DNA of 64,000 nucleotides from an uncultured Elusimicrobia bacterium (GTDB taxonomy: Bacteria > Elusimicrobiota > Elusimicrobia > Elusimicrobiales > UBA9959). Positions 15,692 to 64,000 of this stretch are shown here, in pieces (position 1 is the first letter of the stretch; every line of letters starts with the position of its first letter). Both the position numbers and the translations under genes were made by a program. The stretch lies in NCBI GenBank assembly GCA_903889965.1, contig CAISZM010000001.1, forward strand, positions 1,389-65,388, read 5' to 3'. The notes under the pieces were generated by a model. That model had not been told where the DNA came from, did no database searches, and worked only from the letters and a program-made list of their open reading frames with translations.

Positions 15692-15739
15692 GTCAGTCCG
15701 TAAGAGGGGGAAAAGGTGTCTGTTCCCTTTTATCCCTTA

Positions 15740-15979
15740 TTACGGCTTCTGAGGAGGAATATCCTCGGGCGGTTCGGTCTGAGGCGGAATATCCGGGGAT
15801 GGTTCGGCGTGTATGTATTTAACTTTGGCCGGATTCTTCGCGTTCGTTGCCCCTATACCGCACCTGGGGCAGCGGCGCAGGCAATCTTTGTACGTGTTGG
15901 CGGGCGGAACATTGTTAGCGTTTACCGGGCCCATGGCCTTGCCGCAGCCGGGGCACCGCAGTCTGGGTAATGTGATCAT
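15740..15979 (-). CDS. Hypothetical small zinc-ribbon protein (79 aa)
   Basis: CPGCGK...CPRCG spacing typical of a 4-Cys zinc ribbon, with a Pro-rich repeat tail (PDIPPQTEPPEDIPPQKP). Confidence 0.4.
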   Translation of the reverse strand: MITLPRLRCPGCGKAMGPVNANNVPPANTYKDCLRRCPRCGIGATNAKNPAKVKYIHAEPSPDIPPQTEPPEDIPPQKP

Positions 15980-16015
15980 ATTTTAATTTTCGCGGGCTCC
16001 TTCCGCTTTTTCCTC

Positions 16016-16375
16016 CTACCTTTGGACGTGCAGGCGGAACAGTTCCCAGAAGAGCGCGGCTAAAATAAGCAGCGCTATCAGGATCGTCCTGGCGCGGGCC
16101 GATATGCCGGACGGCTTTATGGGCGCCGCGGAGGAGCCGGCGGACCCGCCGGGGGCTCCGGCCTGGTGTTTTATGTTCAACTTTATCTCAAAATGTTTCT
16201 TGACGCTGACATGGCTCCCCTGCCCGGACGCAACCGCGCCGGCGGCCGCGGTTTCAGCCGCTGAACGGGCGGTTTCCAGCTGGCGGCGCGCGATCTCGCG
16301 GTATTTTTCCGGTATATCGTTAATATTGCGGTATTCCACGCCTTCGATGGTTATCTTGAAGTCTTCACCGTCCAT
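16016..16375 (-). CDS. Hypothetical tail-anchored membrane protein (119 aa)
   Basis: Soluble N-terminal part, Gly/Ala/Ser-rich linker, and a C-terminal TM helix ILIALLILAALFWELF. No family recognised. Confidence 0.35.
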   Translation of the reverse strand: MDGEDFKITIEGVEYRNINDIPEKYREIARRQLETARSAAETAAAGAVASGQGSHVSVKKHFEIKLNIKHQAGAPGGSAGSSAAPIKPSGISARARTILIALLILAALFWELFRLHVQR

Positions 16376-16691
16376 ATAGCGCTATTATACCATACCGTTT
16401 TTCCATAAGATGTTTGCGCCGGTACGTTGTTTTCGGCAGCAAAAGGAATCTTGAGCATTCCCATGCGCCCGGGAAATCCCAAGGCGAAGAGCCTGCGCCA
16501 TGCCGCCCCAGGCGGAAGGCAAAAGATCCGCGTTGTTTCTAACCTGCGGGCCGCCATGGGCCTTAAGGGTAAATTATAGCGGCCAAAAAAATCCCGTTGC
16601 CGGGCCTTACGGCCCTTTAAAAGCCGCGGTTCCTGAGGTAAATTATAGGCGGGCGGGTCGTTTATCCGCAGCCTCTCACGGAGGACCATAA

Positions 16692-17318
16692 ATGAATAGT
16701 AAATCGATAGCGCTGCTTCTTTGTTTTGGTTTTGTCGCCTCGGCCAGGGCCGAAATAAATTTTGACAAGGGAGTCTCCACTAAAGACGCCGCCTCCGCCT
16801 TCAATGAGCGTAAAGCGGCGCCGCTCCCCGAAGCGGCTTTCCCGGAAAAAATATCATCCCGTTTCGACACTTCGGGGTGCTCGGTCCAGGCTGAAACCCG
16901 CCAGCAGGGCCCTGTCTCCGTGACCGTAACGCCCATACCCCGCAATAACTGCTGGAATCTGGGCGATGGCAATATATCCGTAGAATACAAATGGACCCAG
17001 GCCAACAGCTCCGTTCCGGAAAAAAACAATATCGGCTTCTGGTTTTCCCTGAATAGCGCGGCGCAGTTTAAGAAGGCGTCCTCCTATAATTGCAAACCCG
17101 CCCCGCAGGGCGGGTATAGTCCCGACACCAGCGGCAATTCCTATTATGTCTGCGCGGCGTCGGCTTATTTCCAGTTCAGCGCCTACCCGCGCCTCCTGGA
17201 TTTCGCTTACAACCAGGGCGGCGGCCGGAACGTGTGGGATACGCAGGTAGCGGTTTCCCTGGACGACAACGGGAATTGGGACAGCCTGAACGGGAAGAAT
17301 TATTCATTTCGTTTCTGA
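16692..17318 (+). CDS. Hypothetical secreted protein (208 aa)
   Basis: Signal peptide MNSKSIALLLCFGFVASARA. RBS ACGGAGG upstream. No family recognised. Confidence 0.5.
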   Translation: MNSKSIALLLCFGFVASARAEINFDKGVSTKDAASAFNERKAAPLPEAAFPEKISSRFDTSGCSVQAETRQQGPVSVTVTPIPRNNCWNLGDGNISVEYKWTQANSSVPEKNNIGFWFSLNSAAQFKKASSYNCKPAPQGGYSPDTSGNSYYVCAASAYFQFSAYPRLLDFAYNQGGGRNVWDTQVAVSLDDNGNWDSLNGKNYSFRF

Positions 17319-17693
17319 TAAACCCGGCGCCAGCAGTTGCCAAAGTCCTTATCGGGCTTGCGATGAAACCTACGCACGGAAAGCCGGCAGATGAGAAATC
17401 GTGAACAGGCCGGCCCGGGAATCCCCTCCGAGGTTCACGGATGCTTTCGCGAAATGAGCCGCGAAAACAGCGCTGAGATATAAGGTGTAAAACACATAGT
17501 ATCTTTGCGTGTCCATACTAGGCGGTATGCTCGGCCTTTTAGTATTATTGAGTCTATTCCGGGCACCAGGCAGGGGGAAAACCTGGCATTAAAGACGCGG
17601 ACACGGGGATGTTTAACCGGTCCGGCTCCTGTAAAAATATCAGCCAGCATACGCGGCGCAGGCGAATTCTACATTACCCGCTAAGGACCATAC

Positions 17694-18509
17694 ATGAACG
17701 TAATAAAACCGGTTAACAGGCGCATCACGATAGAAGACCTGCACACACCAGAATGGATGGATATCGTCCTGGAAATGCATTCCATGATGAATGTCCCGCG
17801 GAAAAAGATGTGCCAGTTCGGTTATTGCACGGACAGGAAAAGCCTGGTCCATCGCGCCGAATTCGAATCTTTAAAGCATTGGGAGTATCCCTGGCTTATA
17901 AAACACGGGGAATTTAAGCCCGGGGCTAAAATACTCGATTGCGGCTGCGGCCGCGGCATTCTGCAATTCTACCTGGCAAAAAAAGGTTACGACATAACAT
18001 CCGTGGATATCAGCACCCTTAAAGCCCATCAGGTCCAGGGGTTCTGGAACATCGTGAGGAAGTTGGGCTTGCCGATCCGGGAGGACAAGGCCTCCGCGAT
18101 GAAAGCCATGGCCCGCCGTTACGGCACTTCCGTGGATTTCCATGTGGCGAATATCGCCCGTCTTCCTTTCGCGGACGAGACCTTCGACCATGTTTATTCC
18201 ATTTCCGTGCTTGAGCACATGGCAAAGGGCGAGGATGTGATGGCCATAAGGGAGATGAGCCGGGTCCTGAAAAAAGGCGGGACGATGTTCGTCACCGTGG
18301 ATTTTTCGCCGGTTAAAATGGAGATGAAGGCCTACACCAAGGAAGATATACTTGCCCTGATATCGGCTTCGGGGCTGCAGTTCGACAACGAGTACGATTT
18401 CGAGGTCCATGACTGGGATAAATATCTGAACGAGTTGACCGCCGCGTTCAGCAAGAAAAATAAATGCCAGGTGTCGTCGGCCGCGTTCATGCTGAAAAAG
18501 GCGGCGTAA
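17694..18509 (+). CDS. Class I SAM-dependent methyltransferase
   Basis: Motif I ILDCGCGRGILQFYLAKKGYDITSVDIS, then FDHVYSISVLEHM and LKKGGTMFVTV. Confidence 0.8.
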   Translation: MNVIKPVNRRITIEDLHTPEWMDIVLEMHSMMNVPRKKMCQFGYCTDRKSLVHRAEFESLKHWEYPWLIKHGEFKPGAKILDCGCGRGILQFYLAKKGYDITSVDISTLKAHQVQGFWNIVRKLGLPIREDKASAMKAMARRYGTSVDFHVANIARLPFADETFDHVYSISVLEHMAKGEDVMAIREMSRVLKKGGTMFVTVDFSPVKMEMKAYTKEDILALISASGLQFDNEYDFEVHDWDKYLNELTAAFSKKNKCQVSSAAFMLKKAA

Positions 18510-18555
18510 AGAACGGCCTGGGGGAACTTTAAAAGCGGGGGTAAATAAGGAAGAT

Positions 18556-48092: not shown

Positions 48093-49868
48093 TCAGGAAG
48101 CCCGCCAGTACCATTCTATCTGCACCGGGCTAGGCGCGCCGTCCTTCGCCGCCGCCCCGCCCTTTTCCTGATCAATGCGCGGCAGTATGTCGCGCAGTTT
48201 CCAGCAGCCGTCCTCCCTGCCGAAAACCCAGTATTCCGTGAAAGGCGCGGGCGCCTCGTCGCGGTGCAGCAGTTTCCCGTTGCGCCGCATGGCGCGCAGC
48301 GCCGTAGCAGTGAGCCTGGCGGTGAATTCGTCCGGGCCCGTTTTATCCTTTCCTGACGGGTTGGTCAGTACTATCTCCGCCCTGCGCGTGAAAAGACCGG
48401 CGAATTCGAAAGAGAAACCATCGGTCCGCCGTTCCTGCATTATATTTTTAAGCCTGGCCATGGTTTCGGCCGAAGCGAAATCCGCGCTAAGGATGGAACT
48501 GTCGTTCCTGCCCCAGGCTTCGTAGACGTTCTCAAAAGCCAGGGTGGCGGCTATCTCCATCCTTTGCCTGTCCCAGATATCGCCGTCCCGGGCCGCAGCC
48601 GTTTTCTCCGGGGCGGGAGGCTCGGCCGGCATGGGCGAAGAAGCGCCTGCAGCCGCCGCGGCCAGCGGTACGGCGGCGGCTGGAGAATAAGTCGGAAAAA
48701 CAGCCCGGGATACGGCGGGGGAGATAAAGGCATCCTGTGGTTCTTCCGGCAGATTCGAGGAATTCAGAAAGTCTAATTCTCCGGCTTGGTCTATACGCGC
48801 AAGCGCCCAGCGGTCGTTAAAGCGATAGAAGGTCCAGAATTCCTGGAAGGGGGCGGGCTCAGTGTCGCCGCGCAAGCGGGTATGGGTATTTGCGTCAACT
48901 GTGTAATCCAGCGCGGAGGCCGTGATAAGGACGGTAAAAGAGCGGCCTTCTTTTTGGGCGGGACAACGCACCTGCACGAAATCTATCTCTATTACCCGGA
49001 CATCCTCCATCATGTTTATCTCGCCGCGCGCCCTTATGGCCTCTACCTTGTCGCAATGTTCGGCGTAGAGATCCGGCATCATGTCGCCGCGGAGCGTGCT
49101 GTAGTCGCGCGCCTGCCACGCGATCTGCGCGCGGAGGAAAATATCTTTTACGCGCTCTTCAATGGCGTCCGGGTTGAGATCCGGGTCGCGGCCCGAAAGG
49201 CTCTGCATGATCGCGCGCGTTTTTTTATCCCTGGCTGCAAAGATGTCCCTGCGCAGGACAATGCCCTGGCCGCCGTTGTAGTCTTCGGTGTTATTGGGCT
49301 GGCGGAACAGCTCCCTCAGTACCGTTATTGCGATAAGGATCAAATAGAAAAGAGAGTTGCCCCGTCCGCCGCCCTTATTGTGGACGATAAAACCGCCGGC
49401 TATAAAAGTGTGCGGGGGGGTTACTTCAAGGTTGTAAACTTCGCTCAGTCCGCCGGTCTTTATGGACAATATCTTCGTCCACACGCAGCGTCCCCCGGCC
49501 AGGAAGGCCGCTTGCATTTCAACCGTCAGATCTCGGGCTTCCACGAAGCCGTCCCGCGTAAGAAGGGGGTGTTCGGCCGTAGTGGTCAGGCTGCCTTTCC
49601 CGGTAATGACGACCAGCAGCCGGTCGGTCTTTTTGTGGGTTCTTTTTACATCGGCCTGGACCAATCGCCCGCCGGAAAAAGCGAATACCCTGTCTCCGGC
49701 CTTTACCTTCTCTATGGGCACGTCGCCCGCCGCGGTCGCAATAAGAGTGCCGGCCGGGAAGCAGCCCCCGCCTCCCCCGCCACCCCCGCCTCCTCCGCCG
49801 CCCCCGGCCCTGGACCAGGCGGGCGCCGACGGCGCGAGCAGGATAGCCGCGATCAGCAGGTATTTCAT
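48093..49868 (-). CDS. Signal peptide - Gly14 - Hint (bacterial intein-like) domain - TM - two Tim44-like domains (591 aa)
   Basis: MKYLLIAAILLAPSAPAWS, then 14 Gly, then CFPAGTLIATAAG...TTTAEHP...VYNLEV..HTFIAGGFIVHN-KGGG. A TM helix LFYLILIAITVL follows, then ...AWQARDY...FQEFWTFYRFNDRWALARIDQ and ...AWGRNDS...FTEYWVFGREDGCWKLRDILP. Confidence 0.7.
   Translation of the reverse strand: MKYLLIAAILLAPSAPAWSRAGGGGGGGGGGGGGGCFPAGTLIATAAGDVPIEKVKAGDRVFAFSGGRLVQADVKRTHKKTDRLLVVITGKGSLTTTAEHPLLTRDGFVEARDLTVEMQAAFLAGGRCVWTKILSIKTGGLSEVYNLEVTPPHTFIAGGFIVHNKGGGRGNSLFYLILIAITVLRELFRQPNNTEDYNGGQGIVLRRDIFAARDKKTRAIMQSLSGRDPDLNPDAIEERVKDIFLRAQIAWQARDYSTLRGDMMPDLYAEHCDKVEAIRARGEINMMEDVRVIEIDFVQVRCPAQKEGRSFTVLITASALDYTVDANTHTRLRGDTEPAPFQEFWTFYRFNDRWALARIDQAGELDFLNSSNLPEEPQDAFISPAVSRAVFPTYSPAAAVPLAAAAAGASSPMPAEPPAPEKTAAARDGDIWDRQRMEIAATLAFENVYEAWGRNDSSILSADFASAETMARLKNIMQERRTDGFSFEFAGLFTRRAEIVLTNPSGKDKTGPDEFTARLTATALRAMRRNGKLLHRDEAPAPFTEYWVFGREDGCWKLRDILPRIDQEKGGAAAKDGAPSPVQIEWYWRAS
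49377..49763 (-). other. Hint/intein-like autoprocessing module (aa 36-164 of the CDS)
   Basis: It starts with Cys (TGC, 49761-49763) and ends with His-Asn (49377-49382). The +1 residue is Lys, so canonical splicing chemistry is absent. Confidence 0.6.
49764..49805 (-). repeat. 42-nt run of 14 consecutive Gly codons (C/G-only low-complexity tract)
   Basis: The plus strand reads CCCCCGCCTCCCCCGCCACCCCCGCCTCCTCCGCCGCCCCC, lying between the Cys codon and the Ala-Arg-Ser-Trp end of the signal peptide. Confidence 0.9.
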
Positions 49869-50137
49869 CAGCGCAGGGCCGCTAAGACCCCGGCGAGTAC
49901 GGCGGCCGCGATTATTATGCTGACGCCCAGTATGGCGGCCGACACTATGCGCCCGAAATAGTCGCCCACGGCCCGGTTGCCGCGTATTATTTCCTTGCCT
50001 TCGTCTATGTTCGGGGTCAGTTTATTGAGGAGCGCGGGTATGCGCGATGAGAACCAGATGAGCAGGAAACCGCCCGCGGCGCCTCCGACCAGCGCGAAGA
50101 CCAGCGCCCAAGTGATGTTTGCCAGCGTTTCGTACAT
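49868..50137 (-). CDS. DUF350-family small membrane protein (89 aa)
   Basis: ITWALVFALVGGAAGGFLLIWF...LTPNIDEGKEIIRGNRAVGDYFGRIVSAAILGVSIIIAAAV matches my memory of DUF350. Its stop overlaps the downstream ATG (ATGA). Confidence 0.6.
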   Translation of the reverse strand: MYETLANITWALVFALVGGAAGGFLLIWFSSRIPALLNKLTPNIDEGKEIIRGNRAVGDYFGRIVSAAILGVSIIIAAAVLAGVLAALR

Positions 50138-50147
50138 AAGCCTCCGT

Positions 50148-50181
50148 GACCGTAAAAGCGTAGTCTATATTTTTTACGGTC
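50148..50181 (-). promoter_or_regulatory. Perfect 10-bp inverted repeat GACCGTAAAA-N14-TTTTACGGTC abutting the DUF350 ribosome-binding site
   Basis: Read directly. On the minus strand the 3' arm is followed by ACGGAGGCTT-ATG (start 50137). Confidence 0.35.
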
Positions 50182-50402
50182 CAAAGTCATCCCTGCCGGT
50201 GAAAATGCGCTTGCGGCCGGTTATTTTTAAATAAAGCCCTCTTCCCTCGGGGCGTCCCGGGAGAGGTAAAAAGGTGCCCCGCGGCGTTTAAAATGCTAAA
50301 ATATAAGTCCGGCAGTTCCGGTTGGCCTGGTTTTCCCGTTTTACAGTTCCCGGCAAATTTTACTGCTACAGTTCACAGACCCGCACTGCGGGAACAGCTT
50401 CT

Positions 50403-52217
50403 ATGATAACGCTAAGGAACGTCTCCAAATCTTTCGGTTCGCAGGTCCTCTTCGAGGACGCCTCCCTGCAGATAAACGAGGGCGAGCGCTTCGCGCTGGT
50501 CGGGCCCAACGGCTCCGGCAAGTCCACTCTTTTCAAGATGATGCTGCGCGCCGAGGAGGCGGACGAGGGCGAGATACAGTTCAAGAAGGGCGTGGTGGTG
50601 GGGTACCTGCCGCAGGAGAACGCCCCCATCGAGGAAGGCACCGTGGTGGAGGTGACCTTGGACGGCGTGGAGGATTACGACGGCCGTATAGAGGCTGAAG
50701 CCAAAGCCATACTGATGGGGCTGGGTTTTAAAGTCACGGATTTCACGCGCAGGGTGAACACCCTGAGCGGCGGCTGGGCGATGCGCGTGGCGATGGCGAA
50801 GCTCCTGATCAAGAAGCCCGACCTGCTCCTGCTCGACGAGCCCACCAACCACCTGGACCTGGACTCGCTGCTGTGGCTGCAGCAGTACCTGGCCGGCTAC
50901 CAGGGCGCCATTTTCGTTATCTCCCACGACCGCGCCTTCGTCAACACCGTCTGCAACGCCATAGTTTCCGTGCAGGAAAAAAACCTCCGGGTCTATTACG
51001 GGGACTACGAGAATTTCCTCGCGCAGCGCGAATCCGAGAAGGAAAAGATATATTCGGCCTGGCGCCTCCAGCAGGAACAGGTAGACCAGATGAAGGATTT
51101 TATCGCCCGCAACAGGGCGCGGGTATCCACGGCTTCCCGCGTGCAGAGCATGATAAAGCGCCTGGACAAGCTGGAACTCATAGAGCTGCCGGCCGAGGTG
51201 AAGACGGTGAAGATCCGCTTCCCGCAGCCCGGCCGTACCGGCACCAAGGTGCTGGAGCTTAAGGACGTAAGCAAGATCTACGAGGTTCCCGGCCACGAGC
51301 CTATAAAGGTCTACGAGAATTTCAACTTCGAGCTGCAGCGCGGCCAGAAGATGGCCTTCGTCGGCCACAACGGCGCCGGGAAATCCACGCTTTTAAAAAT
51401 GCTGGCGGGCGTGATAGAGCCGGATTCCGGCGAGCGCGTGCTGGGGCTGAACGTGAAGACCGGCTATTTCTCCCAGCACCGCGAGGGCATACTGGACCCG
51501 CGCAAGACCGTCCTGCAGGAAGCCATGGACAATGACCGGATGAACCCGGAGCTGGTGGTGCGTACCGTGCTCGGAACCTTCCTGTTCCCGGGCGACAACG
51601 TTTTCAAGAAGACCGCCGTGCTCTCCGGCGGCGAGAAGAGCCGCCTGATGCTGGTGAAGCTGCTCATGGACCCGCCCAACGTCATACTTATGGACGAGCC
51701 CACCACGCACCTGGATATGGCTAGCGTGGACGCGCTTATAGGAGCCCTGAAGGAATTCGAAGGCACCCTCTGCTTCATCAGCCACGACATTTATTTTATA
51801 AACGCCCTGGCCGATTCCGTGGTGCACATCGAACAGGGCAAGACCACCGTCTACCCCGGCAACTACGACTATTTCCGCTACCGCCAGGACCAGATACAGG
51901 CAGCGGACGCCGCGCACCAGAAAAATAATCCGCCGGCTCAGGCCGCGCCGGCCCCGTCAACTGACTGGGAGGCTAAAAAGCGCCTGGAAGCCGAAGGCAG
52001 GAAAAAAGTGCGCCGCGTGGAAACGCTGCACAAGGAAATAGCCTATTCCCGCAAGACGGTGGAAACCCTGGCGGCCAAAATGTCCTCGCCCGAAATTTAC
52101 TCGGATTACAGGCAGGTGAAGGAACTCGGCGACAAGATACACGCCCTGGAAGCCAAGATCTCCGCGTACACCGAGGAGCTGAAGACGCTGGAGAGCGCAA
52201 ACGTAACCGCGCAATAG
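50403..52217 (+). CDS. ABC-F family ATPase (two ABC domains, no TM; Uup/YheS/EttA-like)
   Basis: LVGPNGSGKSTLFK / LSGGWAMRVAMAKLL and FVGHNGAGKSTLLK / LSGGEKSRLMLVKLL, with a C-terminal coiled coil. I prefer ATG 50403 (MITLRNVSKSF) over TTG 50322. Confidence 0.9.
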   Translation: MITLRNVSKSFGSQVLFEDASLQINEGERFALVGPNGSGKSTLFKMMLRAEEADEGEIQFKKGVVVGYLPQENAPIEEGTVVEVTLDGVEDYDGRIEAEAKAILMGLGFKVTDFTRRVNTLSGGWAMRVAMAKLLIKKPDLLLLDEPTNHLDLDSLLWLQQYLAGYQGAIFVISHDRAFVNTVCNAIVSVQEKNLRVYYGDYENFLAQRESEKEKIYSAWRLQQEQVDQMKDFIARNRARVSTASRVQSMIKRLDKLELIELPAEVKTVKIRFPQPGRTGTKVLELKDVSKIYEVPGHEPIKVYENFNFELQRGQKMAFVGHNGAGKSTLLKMLAGVIEPDSGERVLGLNVKTGYFSQHREGILDPRKTVLQEAMDNDRMNPELVVRTVLGTFLFPGDNVFKKTAVLSGGEKSRLMLVKLLMDPPNVILMDEPTTHLDMASVDALIGALKEFEGTLCFISHDIYFINALADSVVHIEQGKTTVYPGNYDYFRYRQDQIQAADAAHQKNNPPAQAAPAPSTDWEAKKRLEAEGRKKVRRVETLHKEIAYSRKTVETLAAKMSSPEIYSDYRQVKELGDKIHALEAKISAYTEELKTLESANVTAQ

Positions 52218-52296
52218 AAATTGGGGTGAGGCGGTTGCCACGGGGACCAGAGCGCAAAAACAGTCGCAGACGGGGGCTTTGTTTCGCACACCGTGC

Positions 52297-52520
52297 TCAC
52301 CCTTCCCCGTCTCAGGCTCGTCGCTTACGCAAGCCTCGCCTTCCGACAGGGTTTTGCTAACCCGGTCCCCGCGGCAGCCGCAGGGAAAGTGGTTTTGGGG
52401 CGGCGAGGGTATGGGTTCGGAGGGCCCTCACGGAGGCCGACGCTTGCGTAAGCGCGGAGGCCGAGTGGGGAGGGCGGCCACGGTGTGGCCGACCCGGTGC
52501 CCGACGGGCCCATACCCTCG
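52297..52520. repeat. Nested/interleaved inverted repeats in the 360-bp ABC-F/typA intergenic region
   Basis: Arm A (~52297-52346, core CGCTTACGCAAGC 52322-52334) is complementary to arm A' (~52430-52478, core GCTTGCGTAAGCG 52442-52454). B, CGAGGGTATGGG (52404-52415), is complementary to B', CCCATACCCTCG (52509-52520). There is also a small hairpin GGCCAC-GGT-GTGGCC (52476-52490). Confidence 0.6.
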
Positions 52521-52577
52521 GCGACCCCCGCTTGGCCGGCGTGGACATTAGAGGATTTTAAGGAGCAACAACAAAAC

Positions 52578-54416
52578 ATGCAACATGACACAGCAAAGCG
52601 CCGGCACGACCTGCGCAACATAGCCATCATCGCCCACGTCGACCACGGCAAAACCACGCTTCTCGACGCCATGCTCAAGCAGACCGGCGCCTTCCACGAC
52701 AAAAGCGGCGAGGAAGCCATCTGCATCATGGACTCCAACGACCTCGAAAGGGAGCGCGGCATCACCATTCTCTCCAAGAACACCTCCGTGCGCTACGGCG
52801 ACACCACCATACACATCGTTGACACCCCCGGCCACGCCGACTTCGGCAGCGAGGTTGAGCGCGTGCTCAGGATGGTGGACGGGGTACTGCTCCTGGTCGA
52901 CGCCCTCGACGGCCCCATGCCGCAGACCCGCTTCGTCCTCAAAAAATCCCTCGCGCTGGGCCTGAGGCCTATCGTCGTGGTGAACAAGATAGACCGTCCC
53001 AACTGCGACCCGCACGCCACGCTCGACAAGATCTTCGCCCTCTTCATGGAGCTTGGCGCCACCGACGCGCAGCTGGATTTCCCGACCATATACGCCGTGG
53101 GCCGCGACGGCTGGGCGACGCACGACTTCAAGGTGAAGACGAACGACCTTAAGCCGCTTTTCGAGACCATCATAAAGCACGTCCCGGGGCCCCTGGACCT
53201 CGACGACCAGCCGCTCAGGCTGCTGGTGACCATGCTGGACTACAGCTCTTACACCGGGCGCATAGGCGTGGGCCGCATCGTGCAGGGCAAAATAACTTCC
53301 GGCCAGCAGGTCTCCATGGGTTCCCCAACCTCCCAGCCGGTCACGCGCAAGGTGACACAGCTGCTCGGCTACAAGGGCATGGAGAGGGTAGTGATAAAGG
53401 AAGCCCGCTCCGGCGACATCGTGGCCATATCGGGACTTGAAGGCGTGGAGGTCGGCGATACCATTTCGGACGCGGAAAACCCGGGAATGCTGCCGGGGCT
53501 GGAGATAGAGCAGCCCACGGTCTCGATGGAATTCTTCGCCAACGACGGCCCCTTCTCGGGGCGCGAGGGCAAATTCGTGACCGCCACGCAGCTGCGCGAC
53601 CGGCTTTACCGCGAGCAGCAGATCAACGTGGGGCTTAAAGTCGAGGAGATACCCGGACAGAGCGGCTTCAAGGTTTCCGGCCGCGGGGAACTGCACCTCG
53701 CCATACTTATCGAGACCATGCGGCGCGAGGGCTTCGAGCTATGCGTCTCCAAGATGGTCGTGATAACCCACCTGGAGAACGGCGTAAGCGTCGAGCCGGT
53801 GGAACTCCTGATGCTGGACTCCCCGGCGGAGTTCCAGGGCGCGGTGATGAACGGCCTGGGCGCGCGCGGCGCGCAGCTTAAGAACATGACGATCGGCGAG
53901 GATGGCCGCGTAAGGTTCGAGTATGTCATTTCCTCGCGGGCGCTTATCGGTTTTAAATCGGAATTCCTGACCTTTACCAAGGGTTCGGGCCTGATGCACC
54001 ACAGTTTCCACGGCTTTCTCCCGGAAGGCGGCTTCAACCGCCCGAACCGGAACGGGGTATTTATAGCCAAGGAATCCGGCAAGTCAGCCGGCTACGCCCT
54101 CAACGGACTGCAGGACCACGGCATAATGTTCATCGGAGCCGGCGAGGATGTTTACCTGGGCCAGATAGTAGGCGAACATTGCCGCGCCAACGACCTTGTC
54201 ACCAACCCGTGCAAGGAAAAGAAGCAGACCAATATGCGTTCCTCCACCTCCGACATGTCCATAGTCCTGACCCCTCACCGCCAGATGAGCCTGGAGCAGG
54301 CCATAGAGTACGTCGAGGAAGACGAGTTCGTGGAAGTGACGCCGAAGAGCCTGCGCCTGCGCAAGAAGGTGCTGGACCACAGCCTGCGCAAGCGCGGCGA
54401 AAAGGTTGACGATTAA
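52578..54416 (+). CDS. typA: Translational GTPase TypA/BipA
   Basis: [42 protein letters not shown], plus the BipA-type C-terminal domain. ATG 52578 follows AAGGAG. Confidence 0.95.
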
Positions 54417-54570
54417 CCTGGATCCTGCAGTTCAGAATGCTTTACACTGAAAAAATATGGGAACAGAATTATTCTGCAGGATTCCCCGCGAAGCGGGCGG
54501 AGGGCCAAGCGCTATGCGCGCCAGGCCCGAGGAGGCGTATACCTCCCGAAGGGCGCTCGCTGTGCGGGCG

Positions 54571-54592
54571 GAAAGTTGCAGCTGCAACTTTC
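54571..54592. promoter_or_regulatory. 22-bp perfect palindrome GAAAGTTGCAGCTGCAACTTTC 10 nt upstream of ATG 54603
   Basis: Read directly. It is either an operator-like site or a leader hairpin that occludes the start region. Confidence 0.35.
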
Positions 54593-54602
54593 AGGTTAAA
54601 CC

Positions 54603-55001
54603 ATGAAAAGGGGAATAGCGGCGTTTCTGTCGGCAGCCTGCTTCGCTGTCCCGGCCCTGGCGGCCGGAGCGGAGGCCGCGCCCGCGGCTCCCCGCAACTA
54701 TTTCCTGGAACTTTACATCCCGCAGATACTGGCGGTGATGGCCGGGCTGGTCCTGTTGTCGCACGCCGCCGAAAAAAGGTTCCCGGACCGGAAACCGGCC
54801 TTGCGCAAAGCCTGGAACTGGCTGCTTCTTCTCTCTTTCGCCTTTTGCGTGCTGCCCGGTCTGTGCCTTTTAATACCGCTGGGCAAGACCATTAAATACC
54901 TGCTTCTCGATATACACGTATGGGCCGGGGCCGTCTGCGTCTGCGCCGGAACATACCATGCCTGCCGGCGTTTCAGCGGCCTGTTCGGCCCGCGCAGGTA
55001 G
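54603..55001 (+). CDS. Hypothetical membrane protein (132 aa)
   Basis: Signal-like MKRGIAAFLSAACFAVPALAAGA and 3 TM helices. The His-containing last helix DIHVWAGAVCVCAGTYHACRRF resembles a DUF4405-style domain (weak). Confidence 0.4.
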   Translation: MKRGIAAFLSAACFAVPALAAGAEAAPAAPRNYFLELYIPQILAVMAGLVLLSHAAEKRFPDRKPALRKAWNWLLLLSFAFCVLPGLCLLIPLGKTIKYLLLDIHVWAGAVCVCAGTYHACRRFSGLFGPRR

Positions 55002-55163
55002 CTTCCCGGGAAAGTCCCGGAAATCGGTCGCGACCTCCCTTGTAACTTCTCCCGAATATTGATAGATTGTTCCCGTGGCCTGATAAACGCGCTTATCTTT
55101 AAGCGGGCGCGCGGGTGCGGCGGTCCGTCCCGTAAAATTTTTAGTGAGTGTAAGGTTTCCCCG

Positions 55164-56495
55164 ATGCGCTTTTTCAGTGTGTTATTGCTTTTCTTCGCGC
55201 TGCCGCTGCCTTCCGCGGCCGGCGGCGCCTGCACGGCTTCTTTCGGCTCAGGCTCAGAGGGCTGCGAGTATCCGGGCTCCGGCTCCGGCGCGGCGAAAGA
55301 CCCTTTCCTGCTGGAACTGGAACACAGAAGCTTTTTGTATTTCTCGGAGAACGCCGACCCCCGTACCGGGCTGGTAAAGGACAGGTCGGCCGCGGACGGC
55401 TCGCAGGCCGGGGGGGACGGCGTGGCCAGCGCGGCGGCCACCGGTTTCGGGCTGAGCGCCCTGTGCGTCGGGGCCGAGAACGGGTGGATCCCGGCCGCGG
55501 AAGCGGCGGCCCGCGCGCGAAAAACGCTTGAATTCCTCGTAGAGCGCTCCACCTCGGTGCACGGCTGGTACTACCATTTTGTGGATCAGTCCGACGGCGC
55601 GCGGGCCTGGAACAGCGAAGTTTCCTCCATAGACACCGGCTTCCTCCTTGCCGGCGCGCTCACGGTAAAGGGATGTTTTCCGGAGGACCAGTCTATCGCT
55701 TCCCTGTCGGACGAGCTCTACTCACGGGTGGATTTTAAATGGATGCTCAACGGGGGGCGTGCGCTCTCGCACGGCTGGTACCCCGAGAGCGGGTTCATCT
55801 GGCACAGGTGGGACACGCAGAGCGAGCACCTGCTGCTCACCCTGCTGGCCATCGGCTCCCCGCGGAACGCGGCGCCCCCGGACCTGTGGAAGGCTTGGAA
55901 ACGCGAGGCGCGCTCATACGGCCCCTACAAATACGCGGGAACCGCCGCGCCGCTCTTCGTGCATCAGTACTCGCACGCCTGGTTCGATTTCAGGCATGTG
56001 CGGGACACCGAAGACCCGTCCGCGGACCTGTTCCTGAATTCCGCGGTGGCTACCGAGGTCCATAAGCAATTCTGCGTGGACATCTCCTCGGCTTTCAAGT
56101 CTTACAGCGCCGATGTGTGGGGAATTACCGCCTCGGACGGCGAGGGCGCCTATCACGGCTGGGGAGGTCCGCCCGCCACTTCGGATATAAACGGCACTGT
56201 GGTGCCCTGCGCAGCCGGCGGCTCGCTCATGTTCTCCCCTGAAATAACCCTGCCGGCGCTAAAGGAAATGCGGGAGCGCTGGGGCGGGCGTGTATGGAAA
56301 CGCTACGGCTTTGTGGACGCCTTTAATCCGCTTTCGGACTGGTACGATAACGACACCCTCGGCATAGACGCAGGCATAACACTCCTGAGCGCGGAGAACC
56401 TGCGCTCGGGGAAAGTCTGGCGCTGGTTCATGTCTAATCCCGAACCGCGCAAGGCGATGCAGCTTACCGGCCTCGGGCCTTCCGGGGCCCGTTAG
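55164..56495 (+). CDS. Secreted DUF3131/GH144-like (putative beta-1,2-glucanase type) glycoside hydrolase
   Basis: Signal peptide MRFFSVLLLFFALPLPSAAG. Motifs: RSFLYFSENADPRTGLVKDRS, AATGFGLSAL, HGWYYHFVD, EVSSIDTGFLLAGAL, HLLLTLLAIGSP. Confidence 0.55.
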   Translation: MRFFSVLLLFFALPLPSAAGGACTASFGSGSEGCEYPGSGSGAAKDPFLLELEHRSFLYFSENADPRTGLVKDRSAADGSQAGGDGVASAAATGFGLSALCVGAENGWIPAAEAAARARKTLEFLVERSTSVHGWYYHFVDQSDGARAWNSEVSSIDTGFLLAGALTVKGCFPEDQSIASLSDELYSRVDFKWMLNGGRALSHGWYPESGFIWHRWDTQSEHLLLTLLAIGSPRNAAPPDLWKAWKREARSYGPYKYAGTAAPLFVHQYSHAWFDFRHVRDTEDPSADLFLNSAVATEVHKQFCVDISSAFKSYSADVWGITASDGEGAYHGWGGPPATSDINGTVVPCAAGGSLMFSPEITLPALKEMRERWGGRVWKRYGFVDAFNPLSDWYDNDTLGIDAGITLLSAENLRSGKVWRWFMSNPEPRKAMQLTGLGPSGAR

Positions 56496-56573
56496 ATCCC
56501 GTCAGTTCCAACGGCGTTTTAAGCGAAAATACTGTCCGCCGCGCGTCGCGCACGCGGACAGGTTAAAGGCTTC

Positions 56574-57795
56574 ATGAGATTCTTAACCCGCGGTCAAGGC
56601 GGCGCCGCCGAACTCCTGAAGGTGGCGTATCCGCTTATACTTTCCACCGCCTCGGGTACCGTGATGCAATTCGTGAACCGCGTGTTCCTGGCGCATTACA
56701 GCCCGGACGCGCTGGCGGCCTGCGTGCCGGGCGGCATACTCAGCTTCACTTTCCTCTGTTTTTTTATGGGCACGGCCACGTACACCAACGCTTTCGTGGC
56801 GCAGTATCACGGCAGGGGGAAAACCGCCAGCGTGTCGGTGGCCGTATGGCAGGGGGTGTGGCTGGCGCTGGCCAGCGGGCTTGTGCTGCTGCTGCTGACG
56901 CCGGCCGGGTTTTACATCATAGACCATTCCGGCCATGCCGCGTCCGTGCGCGCGCTGGAAAGGCCTTATTTCGCCATCCTGAACGCTTTCGCCGTTTTCC
57001 CCGTCCTTAACACTGCCCTGGCGGCTTTTTTTATAGGCAGGGGGAAGACCAAGGTCCCGATGGCCGTTAATATCGCGGGCAACGCCCTTTGCGTACTCGC
57101 CTCCTGGCTCCTGATATTCGGGGCGGGGCCCGTGCCCGCAATGGGGATAAAAGGCGCCGCCTGGGCCGCCGCCTCCGGCCAGATTCTGATGACCGTACTC
57201 TACCTGCGCGCCATATTTTCCGCCTACAACCGCCGACGCTTCCGCACCGCGCGCCTGGCCGGGATACATACCGGACTTTTCCTCCGCATGATAAAATACG
57301 GCGCGCCCAACGGCGCGGGTTTTTTTCTGGACATCGCCTCCTTCGGCGCTTTCATCTTCATCATAGGGGGCATGGACGAGATATCGCTGGCCGCGAGCAA
57401 TATCATCGCTTCCATAAACATGCTGGCTTTCATGCCCGTCATAGGCCTGGGGCTGGCCACGCTGACGCTGGTCGGCAAGTATATAGGGATGAAAAAGCCG
57501 GACGTTTCCGTGCGCGTGGCGCATAACGCCGTCCGCCTTGCCGGAATTTACGCGCTAACGCTCGGCGCGCTGTTCGTGGTCGTGCCCGGCCTCTTCATAA
57601 ACATCTTCGGCTCCGGGAATTCGGCGGAGTACGCGCAGATACTGGCCAAAAGCCGGCCGCTAATGAAGGTGCTGGCCGTGTTCATCTTCTTCGACGCCGT
57701 GGGCATAATCTTCGCTGACGCGCTGCGGGGGGCGGGAGACACGCGTTTCCAGATGCTTGGCGCCAGCGCGGCGGCCTGGCTGCTCGTCCCGATGC
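56574..57795 (+). pseudogene. MATE-family efflux transporter, 3'-truncated at the junction (roughly the last 45-50 aa missing)
   Basis: Typical MATE N-terminus LLKVAYPLILSTASGTVMQFVNRVFLAHYSPDALAA and second-half [14 protein letters not shown]. After ...AAAWLLV the frame runs into unrelated sequence and stops at 57872. Confidence 0.75.
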
Positions 57796-57800
57796 GCCAC
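57780..57800. other. Breakpoint between two truncated, unrelated genes (contig join / chimera / rearrangement scar)
   Basis: MATE homology ends at about 57790. Chorismate-synthase homology is readable from about 57800 in another frame ([40 protein letters not shown]...). There is no stop, start, intergenic spacer or mobile element between them. Confidence 0.7.
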
Positions 57801-58459
57801 TTGAAGATCTGTGGCACCTTGCCGCCAATTCGGAGCTGTTTTGCTGTGATGCGGTTGCCGAGCTGGAAATGATGCGGATGATCGACCATGCTAAATCCGG
57901 CGGTGATACCCTGGGGGGTGTGGTGGAGGTGCAGGTGTCCGGCGTTCCGCCAGGTCTGGGCAGTTATGTCCAGTGGGACCGCAAGCTGGATGCGCGCCTG
58001 GCAATGGCGCTGATGAGCATACAGGCCATCAAGGGGGTTGAGGTGGGCATTGGTTTCGAGGTTGCCCGTTTCCCCGGTTCACAGGTACACGACGAGATTT
58101 TTCGCGATGCCGGTCGTCTTGATCAGGGGGCCGCCAGCGCCTATTTCAGGTATACCAACAGGGCCGGTGGTATTGAGGGTGGCATGTCAAATGGTGAAAT
58201 AATCGTGCTGAGGGCTGCCATGAAGCCGATCCCGACCCTCTATACCCCGTTGCGATCGGTTGATATCCAAACGCACGAACCATTCGAGGCTGTCGTGGAG
58301 CGTTCCGATACCTGTGCGGTGTCTGCAGCTCTTGTGGTGGCCGAGGCGGTGGTGGCCATTGAGATTGCCAATGCTTTTCTGGAAAAATTCGGAGGAGACT
58401 CGCTACGCGAGATACGACGCAATTATGATGGGTTCCGTGAGCAGATTCGCAATGTATGA
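57797..58459 (+). pseudogene. aroC: Chorismate synthase, C-terminal ~220 aa only (5'-truncated at the junction)
   Basis: [52 protein letters not shown] and the C-terminal ...[21 protein letters not shown]. The N-terminal ~170 aa of a normal AroC are absent. Confidence 0.85.
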
Positions 58460-58970
58460 CCGTCCCGTTATCCTGACCGGTTTTATGGGCAGCGGCAAGA
58501 GCAGTGTCGGGCGGATTCTGGCAAGGTCCCTGGGATGTCCGTTTATTGATCTGGATGCGGTGATTGTTGCCGATGCGGGGAAATCGATTAACGAAATATT
58601 TAGTGATGAGGGGGAGAGTGCCTTTCGGGTCAGGGAAAGCACCTGTCTTGAGCGGATCCTGTCGGACGGCCTGAAAGTAATTGCATCCGGCGGGGGTGTG
58701 GTGATCGCCGAATCGAATCGTCGCTTGATGCGCAAGAGGGGATTCGTGGTCAACCTGACGGCATCGTTATCCACGATCTTGGCCCGCCTGGAAGGGGCTG
58801 CCGACCGGCCGCTGTATGCCGGTCTGGATGCCGCAAGTCGTGTCAGGGTGTTGCTGGAAGAACGAAAACAATTTTATGCCGATGCTGATATTAGAATTGA
58901 CACGGACAAAATTTCCGTGGAAGATGTGTCGGCAAAGATTTTGAGGATTTTAAAGGGGTTGCCCGCGTGA
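58452..58970 (+). CDS. aroK: Shikimate kinase
   Basis: [24 protein letters not shown] (P-loop). 172 aa. It overlaps the aroC stop by 8 nt. Confidence 0.9.
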
Positions 58971-60046
58971 GTTCGCTGACTGTCAACCTGGGCGAAAACA
59001 CTTATGATATTCGGATCGATTGCGGTTCGCTGTCATCGCTCGGTAGCCAGTGCGCCGAACGAGGGCTGGCGGGGCGCGTTGCGTTGGTTACCAACCCGGC
59101 GGTCGCTGCTCTCTACGCCGATCAGGTCAGACAAGCACTGGCTGAAGCCGGCAACGATGTTACCCTGATCGAGATTCCAGATGGCGAAGAATACAAAAAT
59201 TCAACAACCCTCAATCGGGTCTATGATGAGCTGATCGAAGCGGGACTTGACCGCAATTCATTCATCGTTGCCCTGGGGGGCGGGGTGGTGGGCGATTTGG
59301 CCGGATTCGCGGCGGCAACCTATCTGCGCGGCATCCCTTTCGTACAGGTGCCGACGACTCTGCTGGCTCAGGTCGACAGCAGCGTAGGGGGCAAGACCGC
59401 CATTGACCACCCGCGTGGAAAAAATCTTATTGGCGCCTTCTTCCAGCCGAGGCTGGTGCTGATCGACACGGATACATTGAAGACACTTCCGTTACGTGAA
59501 TTCCGTGCCGGCTTGGCCGAAGTTGCTAAATACGGGATTGCCCTCGACAATGGTTTTTTTGAATTTTTGGAGCAGAACAACGTCAGCATCCAGAAGATGG
59601 AGCAGGAAAGCCTGGTGCGGGTTATCCTGACTTGCTGCCAACTGAAGGCCCGGATCGTAGAGATGGATGAGAAGGAATCCGGTCTGCGCGCGATCCTCAA
59701 TTACGGACATACCTTGGGGCATGCCATTGAGACCCTGGCGGGTTACCGCCAAATGGTGCATGGTGAGGCTGTGGCGCTCGGAATAGTGCTTGCCGCCCGG
59801 ATCAGCAGAACACTCGGGTACTGTAACGATCACGATGTTAACCGTATCACAACACTCTTGTCAGGTTTCGGACTTGAGCTTTCTCCGCCGCGGGTCGAGG
59901 CCGACCGTTTGCGCGACGCCCTGTTGAAGGACAAGAAAAGCCGCAGTGGCAGTATAAGTTTCATATGCAATCGTGGTATCGGTGACTATGTCGTGGAAAA
60001 ACTATCAACTGAGCAACTGCTCATCCTAAGCGGATTGGAGGTCTGA
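58967..60046 (+). CDS. aroB: 3-dehydroquinate synthase
   Basis: GGGVVGDLAGFAAATYLRGIPFVQVPTTLLAQVDSSVGGKTAIDHP and NYGHTLGHAIE. Confidence 0.95.
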   Translation: MSSLTVNLGENTYDIRIDCGSLSSLGSQCAERGLAGRVALVTNPAVAALYADQVRQALAEAGNDVTLIEIPDGEEYKNSTTLNRVYDELIEAGLDRNSFIVALGGGVVGDLAGFAAATYLRGIPFVQVPTTLLAQVDSSVGGKTAIDHPRGKNLIGAFFQPRLVLIDTDTLKTLPLREFRAGLAEVAKYGIALDNGFFEFLEQNNVSIQKMEQESLVRVILTCCQLKARIVEMDEKESGLRAILNYGHTLGHAIETLAGYRQMVHGEAVALGIVLAARISRTLGYCNDHDVNRITTLLSGFGLELSPPRVEADRLRDALLKDKKSRSGSISFICNRGIGDYVVEKLSTEQLLILSGLEV

Positions 60047-60049
60047 ATC

Positions 60050-60973
60050 ATGCTGCAAGACAGTGCATCGTTCTGGTCTGATATCAAAATGTATGAGGAG
60101 CGGTTGGCACAGGATCCCGATTCATACCTCTTTGCGCGGTTGGCAGAGATCTATCTGAAGGTTGACCTGATAGATGATGCCCTTCATATCGCACGTCGGG
60201 GGGTTGAAAAGTACCCGGCCTATATCACCGGTTTACGTGTCCTTGCCATGGCCTGTTACGCCAAAGGGCTGCATGACGAGTGCCGCCGGGCCTTGGAAAC
60301 GGTTGTCGCGGCTATCCCGGAAGACGCGCAGGTTCAGAGGCTGTTGGGAAAATTGCTGGTTGCGGACGGGAATAGCGAGGCGGCCAAGAAGGTACTTCTC
60401 ACAATTCTGGATTTCAACCCTGACGATCTGGAGTGCCGGGAGGAAATCCTGGCGCTTGAACAGGTTTCCATCCTGCCTGTGATGGAGTCCTCCGAAATTT
60501 CACTTCTCGAAGCTGGTGCGGAACTCGCTGACTCGGTTGTTCAGGAGTTTGTGGATGATGACGAGATCATCGATCTTCAAGAATCTGATATAGTTGAGGA
60601 GTTTGATCTGGAAAAAATGGCTCCTCCCGCAACAACAGCCGAACGTCTTGATCCGCTCTCGACTGCTACCTTGGCGGAGTTGTACGTTCAGCAGGGGTTT
60701 ACCGACAAGGCGTTGAATATTTATCGGTCCGTGTATGCTGTGGATCCGACGAACAGTGATGTTCAAACCCGGATTGCCGAACTTGAAGCCAGAGAAGCTG
60801 CGGCAGCGGCTTTTCCTGTGATGTCGGATAGTGCCGATACCATTTCCGGTACCGTTTCTCAAGAGTCTTCAGTGTTTCCGCAGGGTATTCACGTGCAGGG
60901 TGCAACTGACGATGTTGTATCCACGCTGGAAGGGTGGCTTGAAAACATCAGGAGGATCAAGGCATGTCGCTAA
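60050..60973 (+). CDS. TPR-domain protein with acidic linker (307 aa)
   Basis: TPR-like helices at both ends (YLFARLAEIYLKVDLIDDALHIARRGVEKYP..., LAELYVQQGFTDKALNIYRSVYAVDPTN). Confidence 0.55.
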   Translation: MLQDSASFWSDIKMYEERLAQDPDSYLFARLAEIYLKVDLIDDALHIARRGVEKYPAYITGLRVLAMACYAKGLHDECRRALETVVAAIPEDAQVQRLLGKLLVADGNSEAAKKVLLTILDFNPDDLECREEILALEQVSILPVMESSEISLLEAGAELADSVVQEFVDDDEIIDLQESDIVEEFDLEKMAPPATTAERLDPLSTATLAELYVQQGFTDKALNIYRSVYAVDPTNSDVQTRIAELEAREAAAAAFPVMSDSADTISGTVSQESSVFPQGIHVQGATDDVVSTLEGWLENIRRIKACR

Positions 60974-61326
60974 GGGAAACACTGGCTGGAATCATTGAAA
61001 ATATTGAAGGGGGATGTGCCATTAGCATCATGGCTAGCGATGGCATCCCCATTGACGAAGTTGTTCTGAACCAGGCCGGATTTGATCTGCAGCTCCTGAC
61101 GGTTGAATATGCTACACTCCTCAAGGATATAAGGCGGGTTGTCGAGGTTCTCAAGGTTGGTGAACTGGAGGAAATCTCCGTAACGACCGGTCAGTTGTAT
61201 GTCGTTATCCGCATACTGAGTGATGAGCTGTTTGTGGTTCTGATCATGACCCGGGATGGCAATTTTGGCAAGGGGCGCTATCTGCTGCGCATCAATTCAG
61301 ACGGATTGGCCAACGTGCTGCGATAA
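60964..61326 (+). CDS. Roadblock/LC7 (MglB-like) domain protein
   Basis: 120 aa with a pattern typical of Roadblock/LC7: ...[17 protein letters not shown]...[42 protein letters not shown]. Confidence 0.5.
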
Positions 61327-61328
61327 CC

Positions 61329-61760
61329 ATGCGATATCTTGTTTTGCACGGACCCAATCTGAATCTCCTCGGTAAACGCGAACCGGCTGTTTATGGAACC
61401 CTCACGCTGGAAGAGATAAATAACGCGATCGCCTGCCTGGCAGCCGAATTGGGGTGCTGTGTCGAGTTCCTGCAGTCAAATGCCGAGGGTGAGTTGATCG
61501 ATGCCATTCAGGCCGCTGCCGGAATTTTTGATGGAATTGTAATTAATCCGGCTGCTTACACCCATACCAGTGTTGCCATTCGTGATGCTCTGGCTTCGGT
61601 TGGCCTGCCCTTTGTCGAGGTGCATCTGTCAAATGTCTATCGTCGAGAAGAATTCCGTCATAAAAGCCTGACCGCACCGCTCGCATTGGGACAGATCTGC
61701 GGTTTTGGTGTTCAGAGCTACCTCTTGGGATTGCGGGCTATTATGACGAGTACACAATAA
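61329..61760 (+). CDS. aroQ: Type II 3-dehydroquinate dehydratase
   Basis: [52 protein letters not shown]. Confidence 0.95.
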
Positions 61761-61834
61761 AAATATGCGCAGACGGGAATTCTTGCGGTGCATTGCCGCG
61801 GGTTCAAAAATGTTTGCGCCAATGGAATAAACGT

Positions 61835-62902
61835 ATGCTAAAAGACAGGCGCGCCAAACTGGAGCGCTTTTTCACTTCCCATAAAATCGAAGCAATCCTG
61901 ATTTCGAGCATGCTGAATATCCGTTACCTTTCCGGTTTCACCGGATCGGAAGGGGTGCTGCTATTGACCCGTGACCGGTTTTGGCTACTGTGCGATTCGC
62001 GGTACACAAATCAGGCCTTGGCCGAGGTGCAGGCTGGAGAAATCCGCCAATTTTCAGAAAAACAGGATTCTGTCAGAGAACTGATTGAGGAGCTGAAGCT
62101 TCAGCGCATCGGTTTTGAGTCGGCCCATACTACCGTTGCCGCATTCATGGAATTTTCCGGCAAGTTGACTGGTTGTGAACTGGTACCGATCAATGCAAAT
62201 CTGGATCAAATCCGTTCCTGCAAGGATCAGGATGAAATCGGACGACTCGGCGATGTCGCACGACTGGCGTCAGAAGCCTTTCAGGCTACCGTCGGACTGA
62301 TCAGGCCCGGACTCAGTGAGGTGGATCTTGCCCGTGAACTGGAGTTCGAGATGCGAAGGCGTGGCGCCGATGGTCGAGCTTTCGATTTTATCGTTGCCTC
62401 GGGTGAACGGGGAGCAATGCCGCATGCCCGAGCCACGGATAAGTTGATACGCTCCGGTGAGTTGGTGACAATCGATTTTGGTGCGGTGAAAGATGGCTAT
62501 TATTCCGATGAAACCCTGACCGTGGCAGTAGGAAAACCTGGTGATCGTGCTCGCGAGATATATGATATAGTCAAGGGCGCCCATGATCGGGCTGTTTCAT
62601 CGGTCAAACCCGGTATGACCTGTCGTGATCTGGACGCGGTTGCCCGCGATTATATTCAAGAGTGCGGATACGGTGAGTACTTCGGTCATGGCCTGGGACA
62701 TGGAGTTGGCCTGGAAATTCATGAAAAACCGACTGTTTCTCCCCGCAGCGACATGACGATCGACGAGGGTATGGTCTTCACGATTGAACCGGGTATCTAC
62801 ATACCGGGATTTGGCGGCATCAGAATCGAGGACACAGTGGTGGTCCTTGCCGATGGCTGCCGCCTGCTGACACAGGTTCCGAAAGAATTGATAATGGTAT
62901 GA
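61835..62902 (+). CDS. M24-family Xaa-Pro aminopeptidase/dipeptidase
   Basis: Creatinase-like N-domain plus the pita-bread motifs VTIDFGAVKDGYYSD, HGLGHGVGLEIHEKP, GIRIEDTVVV. I prefer ATG 61835 over TTG 61793. Confidence 0.85.
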   Translation: MLKDRRAKLERFFTSHKIEAILISSMLNIRYLSGFTGSEGVLLLTRDRFWLLCDSRYTNQALAEVQAGEIRQFSEKQDSVRELIEELKLQRIGFESAHTTVAAFMEFSGKLTGCELVPINANLDQIRSCKDQDEIGRLGDVARLASEAFQATVGLIRPGLSEVDLARELEFEMRRRGADGRAFDFIVASGERGAMPHARATDKLIRSGELVTIDFGAVKDGYYSDETLTVAVGKPGDRAREIYDIVKGAHDRAVSSVKPGMTCRDLDAVARDYIQECGYGEYFGHGLGHGVGLEIHEKPTVSPRSDMTIDEGMVFTIEPGIYIPGFGGIRIEDTVVVLADGCRLLTQVPKELIMV

Positions 62903-62981
62903 AACCGGATTTTCTCCCGTGTGGAGCCGGAAAACCGGTATCACCTATATAGTTGCAGGATTTAATTCAAAGGAGACGGAA

Positions 62982-63458
62982 ATGGATGTTAAAGATTTAA
63001 AAGTTCTGATAAAAATGATTACTGAAACCGATATTACAGAATTCGAGATGGATAGCTCGGATGTTAAAATCATCATTCGTCGCGGTGCAAAAACAGAGTA
63101 TGTCAACGTGGCCACCGTGCCCGCGGCATATAATCCGTTTCAGTCTGTACCATCCCCTGCGACAGTGTCGACGGCATCATTCGCACCGGTGTCGGTTTCC
63201 GAGCCAGTTCCGGAAATCGGCGATGCAATCAATTCTCCGATCGTGGGTACTTTCTACTGTGCCCCTGAACCAGGTGCCGCACCCTATGTTGAGGTTGGCC
63301 AGGTGGTGGAAAAGGGTCAGATGCTCTGCATAGTCGAGGCGATGAAACTGATGAATGAGATCGAGGCCGAGTTCCGCTGCAAGATTCTCAGGGTTTGTAA
63401 GGAAAATGCGCAGCCGGTGGAATTCGGCGATGCGTTGTTTATTGTAGAGAGGCTTTAA
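62982..63458 (+). CDS. accB: Acetyl-CoA carboxylase biotin carboxyl carrier protein
   Basis: Biotinylation motif [15 protein letters not shown] with an Ala/Pro-rich linker. ATG 62982 follows AGGAGA. Confidence 0.95.
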
Positions 63459-63463
63459 TAATC

Positions 63464-64000
63464 ATGTTTCATAAAATACTGATTGCCAATCGGGGCGAAA
63501 TAGCCGTTCGCATCATTCGTGCCTGCAAGGAACTGGGCATCAAAACGGTCGCGGTTTACTCCCAGGCCGACAGCAACTCATTGCACGTCAAACTTGCCGA
63601 CGAGAGTGTCTGTATCGGTCCGGCCTCCAGCGCCCTGAGCTACCTGAATATCAAAGCTCTTATAAGCACGGCTGAACTGACTGATGCAGAGGCAATTCAT
63701 CCCGGTTATGGTTTTTTGTCGGAAAACGCCAATTTTGCCGAGATCTGTGAAAAGTGCGGCATAACATTTATTGGCCCCAGTTCTGAGAGCATGAGGATCA
63801 TGGGAGATAAGATCAGCGCCCGCCAAGCTGTTGTCAAACAGGGAGTTCCCATCCTGCCGGGTGCTACAGGCGGGGTTGATACGGTTGATGAGGCAATCAG
63901 GATATCCAAGGAAATCGGCTTCCCGGTGATAATCAAAGCCACTGCCGGCGGTGGTGGCAGGGGCATGAAGATCGTCCATTCCCAGGCGGCTCTGGCGACC
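63464..64000 (+). CDS. accC: Acetyl-CoA carboxylase biotin carboxylase, N-terminal 179 aa (runs off window end)
   Basis: Absent from the ORF track because it is open to the window edge. My translation gives [37 protein letters not shown]...[16 protein letters not shown]...[16 protein letters not shown]. Confidence 0.95.

Follow-up and report, generated by a model that had tools for sequence, protein, structure and literature searches.

Near 57.8 kb of the window, as we call the whole 64,000-nucleotide stretch of DNA analysed here, the gene of a MATE efflux transporter runs directly into the middle of a chorismate synthase gene (aroC), and the question is whether this fusion belongs to the genome of an organism or arose in the making of the contig. 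The original prediction was a contig join or an assembly chimera. We found support for it in a taxonomy split at the join, in intact parent genes that match the two sides at 99.99-100% nucleotide identity, in the bluntness of the join and in the junction ORFs, which stand on one public contig. Together, our results indicate, with a probability of about 0.9, that the 66,915-bp contig in the public record is a technical chimera, in which DNA of two members of one community has been joined. That the feature is a technical artefact by one route or another we regard as very highly probable.

The join can be placed to the base. When the window was compared base by base with two independent contigs, L004 for the left parent and L006 for the right parent, the last left-parent base was 57785 and the first right-parent base was 57786, with 0 nt of overlap and 0 nt inserted between the two parent identities. 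The cut falls on the boundary between codons 404 and 405 of the MATE gene and, in aroC, after the first base of codon 170. The 40-mer that spans the junction reads GCGGCGGCCTGGCTGCTC to the left of the join and GTCCCGATGCGCCACTTGAAG to the right of it. Two genes cut head to tail, in different frames and with nothing between them, had been described at this point, and this description is right, as the parent identities abut at 57785/57786. A repeat search around the join at 57,785 returned none, a search of the whole 64-kb window found no tRNA, and no promoter-like or terminator-like sites were found at the join; the earlier statement that no promoter, repeat or mobile gene lies between the two genes holds accordingly. 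Inspection of the join by eye revealed no adapter or transposase-end remnants at this site of zero inserted bases. The features on either side are collected in Table 1.

Table 1. Features on either side of the join, with window coordinates and the evidence for each
Feature	Position	Strand	Evidence or remark
Glycoamylase-like gene (443 aa, PF10091), last intact gene of the Elusimicrobia block	55164..56495	+	Anchor for finding native contigs
MATE efflux transporter gene, codons 1-404 of native 460	56574..57785	+	P0241 alignment, L004/L005, Pfam MatE
Blunt junction	57785..57786	.	Three-way base comparison; coincides with global tetranucleotide-distance maximum
Artefactual tail of the chimeric MATE ORF: 28 aroC codons read out of frame, and stop	57786..57872	+	Translation
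Chorismate synthase (aroC) 3' fragment: last two bases of codon 170 and codons 171-393	57786..58459	+	L006, P0248, Pfam
P0247, 196-aa aroC remnant ORF, native residues 198-393	57869-58459	+	Public protein record
aroK, shikimate kinase, 172 aa, intact	58452..58970	+	Pfam SKI, E 7.8e-44
aroB, 3-dehydroquinate synthase, 359 aa, intact	58967..60046	+	Pfam DHQ_synthase and DHQS_C
TPR protein, 307 aa	60050-60973	+	Pfam TPR families
Conserved 120-aa protein (p120)	60964-61326	+	Same position in Geobacter-type genomes
aroQ	61329-61760	+	Pfam DHquinase_II
M24 peptidase	61835-62902	+	Pfam Peptidase_M24
accB	62982-63458	+	Pfam Biotin_lipoyl
accC, 5' part	63464 to window end (64000)	+	Pfam Biotin_carb_N

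To the left of the join, the chimeric MATE ORF (P0001, 56574-57872, 432 aa) agrees with a native MATE protein (P0241, 460 aa) at every one of residues 1-404 and departs from it from residue 405 on, and the Pfam MatE match in P0001 has residue 401 as its last. From codon 405 onward the native gene continues with FVPGTWYITHRAG..., which differs from the tail of the chimeric ORF. The MATE ORF had been called cut short, and against P0241 it is, but by 56 aa and not by the 45-50 aa originally estimated. We retrieved the contigs of the parents by exact-protein look-up of genes neighbouring the join. The glycoamylase-like protein was found on 4 independent contigs, and on those that are long enough a complete MatE gene (460 aa) comes next, with genes for a PUA/SAM methyltransferase and a dCMP deaminase after it. 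The complete MatE gene encoding P0241 was found on a 10.7-kb contig, again with the PUA/SAM methyltransferase and dCMP deaminase genes after it. Two of the retrieved contigs, L004 and L005, match window positions 49125-57785 at 99.988% identity, with a single mismatch at 53136; beyond 57785, L004 runs on for 105 nt and L005 for 73 nt with different, native MATE sequence. The carriers of the native MATE gene are L004, L005 and an ERZ1426631 contig. MATE homologues at 70-86% identity carry Elusimicrobia names, and the gene order in Elusimicrobia MAGs is ABC-F, BipA, (PAP2), MatE, PUA/SAM methyltransferase, further genes and dCMP deaminase, with which the window agrees up to the cut.

The ends of these two contigs deserve a remark of their own. 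L004 and L005, of which one is a metaSPAdes-style scaffold and the other a k141 MEGAHIT contig, both begin exactly at window position 49,125, inside a gene, and both end at positions equivalent to 57,858-57,890 of the window, just past a G7 run. For the 591-aa ORF that lies across position 49,125 we found no exact protein record, probably owing to a different called start codon. The recurrence of these dead ends suggests low coverage or strain variation there, and it may be the reason why a chimeric bridge could form at 57,785.

To the right of the join, the aroC frame of the window corresponds to residues 171-393 of a native AroC (P0248, 393 aa), with 223 of 224 residues matching and codon 170 split by the join, and of the 327 positions of the Pfam Chorismate_synt profile only 156-327 are matched. 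That aroC begins mid-protein, in another frame and with about 170 N-terminal residues gone, had been read correctly from the window (the loss is 170 against P0248), but its start lies at 57786 and not at about 57800. Window positions 57786-59483 match L006:644-2341 at 100% identity. This contig (JGI contig 3300022555|Ga0212088_10119231) carries the full 393-aa aroC at 136-1317 and continues upstream of the match for a further 643 nt, in which the 5' half of aroC lies. Proteins identical to AroK, AroB and AroQ are encoded on a 21.7-kb contig, where the gene of a complete chorismate synthase (393 aa) lies upstream and the downstream order is the same, and an AroK-identical protein occurs on contigs from JGI, Logan and ENA. 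The native aroC is carried by L006 and by an ERZ1426827 contig. By Pfam, the genes of the right block (57,786-64,000) are housekeeping genes only.

The homologues of AroC belong to Desulfuromonadales/Geobacteraceae, and the best GTDB loci for AroC, at 73-78% identity, are all from Geobacter, Geobacteraceae or Desulfuromonadaceae. A Geobacter-type order of the downstream genes had been proposed. We examined it by tblastn with the window proteins, and all nine genes, in the order aroC-aroK-aroB-TPR-p120-aroQ-M24-accB-accC, are present in 14 of the 16 Geobacter, Geobacteraceae or Desulfuromonadaceae loci examined, so the proposal holds; in 4 of these 14 loci the aroK match spans merely about 30 aa. 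aroC is full-length in all 14. The other two loci have a partial order, with L017 stopping after p120 and L023 being without aroK and aroQ. The 120-aa protein had been named "roadblock"; it has no Pfam match above threshold, and its match to MAPKK1_Int is weak (E 0.0014, 18.9 bits vs a cut-off of 25).

Two further observations concern the relatives of this block. Every Geobacter-type locus examined (loci L010-L055) has a TPR protein and an overlapping 120-aa protein placed between aroB and aroQ, inside the shikimate operon. In several Geobacter/Desulfuromonadaceae genomes, the gap between aroC and aroB is just ~100-200 nt, namely in L010 (L010:9179-9344), L013, L015 and L017 and in L023, L044 and L055, with AroK matched over ~30 residues or not at all, and the other relatives and the window have a full 172-aa aroK between aroC and aroB. 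The short gap may represent a lineage-specific loss or relocation of shikimate kinase.

The composition of the DNA changes at the same place as the gene content. GC falls from ~0.61 to the left of the join to ~0.52 to the right of it, and GC3 is 0.66-0.83 in nine left genes vs 0.50-0.62 in nine right genes, which bears out the remark that codons ending in A or T are more frequent downstream. Tetranucleotide usage of the right block correlates with that of the left 57.8 kb at r = 0.52, while nine left chunks correlate among themselves at 0.85-0.97, and a scan of adjacent 4-kb windows puts the strongest tetranucleotide break of the entire stretch at 57,750-58,250. In translated similarity, Elusimicrobia loci end at 57785-57788 and Geobacter loci begin at 57770-57779, and neither set matches the other side. 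Profiles of GC and tetranucleotides for each side, together with a taxonomic assignment for each side, had been proposed as checks; the profiles differ, with the break at 57.75-58.25 kb, and the taxonomy is Elusimicrobia on the left and Geobacter/Desulfuromonadaceae on the right. As judged from homologues, synteny and composition, the two sides come from different phyla.

As a control we used the break at ~12.2 kb, which ranks second in the window by tetranucleotide usage. We rejected it as a second chimera, since two independent contigs, L008 and L009, run across its left boundary at 100% identity. This shows that the approach recovers real boundaries where they are present. The break opens a block of low GC at 12,150-18,550 (0.47-0.58 vs 0.60-0.71 on either side) with intergenic boundaries and small intact genes for a lipoprotein, a nitroreductase-like protein, membrane proteins, an FGE-sulfatase-like protein and a methyltransferase, and this block is probably a real accessory island.

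The join at 57,785, for its part, is part of the public record. P0001 (432 aa) and P0247 are both on record for one 66,915-bp NCBI/ENA contig, and we therefore rejected the idea that the join was made in preparing the window, as the chimeric ORFs stand in the deposited sequence itself. This contig reaches up to 2.9 kb past the window. For each of the two proteins, exact look-ups among some 15 billion proteins, which miss partial ORFs on short contigs, gave a single contig, and the flanking proteins recur on 2-5 contigs (ENA, JGI, Logan). In clustering at 90% identity, it is P0001 and not the native P0241 (460 aa) that represents the cluster. A scan of JGI metagenome contigs for the 42 nt to the left and the 41 nt to the right of the join returned no match, but it also missed L006, a known carrier of the 41-nt pattern, so that the negatives from JGI metagenomes carry no weight as absence. 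In GTDB genome contigs, the 41 nt that directly follow the join had no match, and neither the source bin nor an identical donor is a species representative there.

The native contigs of both parents carry BUCK21-1/SAMEA68727xx labels. A dataset of metagenomes from stratified lakes was assembled with MEGAHIT from 2x150-bp reads, both sample by sample and in lake-wise co-assemblies, with MetaBAT used for the binning (PMC8121793). Going by the labels on the contigs of the two parents alone, we infer that the source contig comes from this stratified-lake dataset, and its assembly is probably one of a sample or of a whole lake in ENA project PRJEB38681. Since the join is blunt, it needs either a physically chimeric template or a concatenation by software. 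In the reading that we favour, the bases up to 57,785 would come from an Elusimicrobia genome and those from 57,786 onward from the genome of a Geobacter-type member of the Desulfuromonadales. The most likely route would begin in the library, with two fragments ligated at blunt ends into one chimeric molecule. This molecule would have been read at least twice, for example as overlapping mates or PCR duplicates, and could have linked two contigs at low-coverage dead ends of the de Bruijn graph, and the foreign tail of ~6-9 kb would then have been binned with the 58-kb Elusimicrobia part. The independent contigs of the left parent stop 73-105 nt past the breakpoint, which fits a dead end in that region. 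Neither truncated gene mirrors the biology of either organism.

The same junction could in principle be biological, as the product of a real and very recent inter-phylum transfer in which at least 6.2 kb of Desulfuromonadales DNA was end-joined into an Elusimicrobia MATE gene. Non-homologous end joining can give blunt joins without microhomology, and the donor and recipient populations do co-occur in one sample series, but a transferred block that is 100% identical to free-living donor contigs over every compared stretch, with zero amelioration and a composition that is wholly donor-like, speaks against such an event. The transfer would also have destroyed both boundary genes and have begun mid-gene in an essential pathway, and an integrase, a transposase, a tRNA and a repeat are all absent. 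Viewed as a genomic island, the block has no mobility signature and both boundary genes are cut; its far boundary lies beyond the window. The junction does exist in the deposited contig, and an assembler does not normally make a join without reads that span it, but the junction ORFs are confined to that single contig and the native MATE and native aroC genes were found independently of it. We consider such a transfer very improbable. If true, the join would be a snapshot of inter-phylum transfer before selection or amelioration.

Software offers another way to a blunt join: once the assembly was finished, two contigs could have been strung together with no N spacer between them, by a scaffolder, by a submission script or in the preparation of the window. 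The last of these is ruled out by the public records of P0001 and P0247, and the concatenation of a whole bin would have given a record of megabase size and not one of 67 kb. Perfect bluntness is what concatenation yields, and the independent left-parent contigs do end within about 100 nt of the breakpoint, but MEGAHIT, the assembler of the presumed dataset, does no scaffolding. We give a join after assembly a very slim chance, and a zero-gap join by software is less likely than a chimeric library molecule. Such a join is still an artefact, and it alters the route to our verdict and not the verdict itself. Finally, inter-genome chimeras in de Bruijn assemblies most often go back to a repeat or a conserved stretch, but a misassembly in which the assembler switched genomes inside a stretch common to both has next to no chance here and was rejected, because the parents have 0 nt in common at 57785/57786 and thus no sharing of k-mer length, MatE and chorismate synthase are unrelated, and no repeats lie near the join.

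A technical chimera formed from two members of one community has close counterparts. GUNC, metaMIC and DeepMAsED are tools aimed at inter-genome chimeric contigs in metagenome assemblies and MAGs. Like such contigs, this one shows an abrupt switch of taxonomy and composition within a single contig, with genes cut at the breakpoint; both parental loci are intact elsewhere in the community, and the major block carries the minor one into a bin. Unlike most of them, in which the switch falls in a conserved or repeated stretch common to both genomes, the join at 57,785 has 0 nt in common. Chimeric inserts made in vitro by blunt ligation of end-repaired fragments, PCR template switching or MDA likewise join unrelated sequences at an arbitrary point, with a junction seen once, although microhomology is usual in PCR and MDA chimeras and is absent at 57,785. 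What the locus has in common with genomic islands and with transfer by illegitimate recombination is a block of foreign composition that adjoins native DNA. The comparison can be made within the window, as the probable real island at ~12.2-18.5 kb has intergenic boundaries, intact genes and a left boundary reproduced in independent assemblies. In contrast to that island, the join at 57,785 cuts both genes, the foreign block beside it matches a co-occurring donor at 100%, and the join was found in no other assembly by exact-protein look-ups, which are blind to partial ORFs.

Several consequences follow for the use of this record. Two artefactual proteins stand in public collections, one a "MATE" of 432 aa that ends in a nonsense tail, the other a "chorismate synthase" of 196 aa, and the public bin with this contig holds about 6-9 kb of foreign DNA. 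A blunt chimera resolved to the base and without common sequence could be a test case for chimera-detection tools. Given the verdict of a chimera, genes are not to be linked across 57,785, and P0001 and P0247 are flagged as artefacts. The original prediction had warned that any gene links across the join are unsafe, and this warning stands, as the parents differ on either side of 57,785. The feature is not biological, and its biological importance is close to nil. For the organisms involved, inference on operons, synteny and metabolism must stop at 57,785, and the shikimate and acetyl-CoA carboxylase genes at 57.8-64 kb are those of a Geobacter-type organism and not those of the Elusimicrobia.
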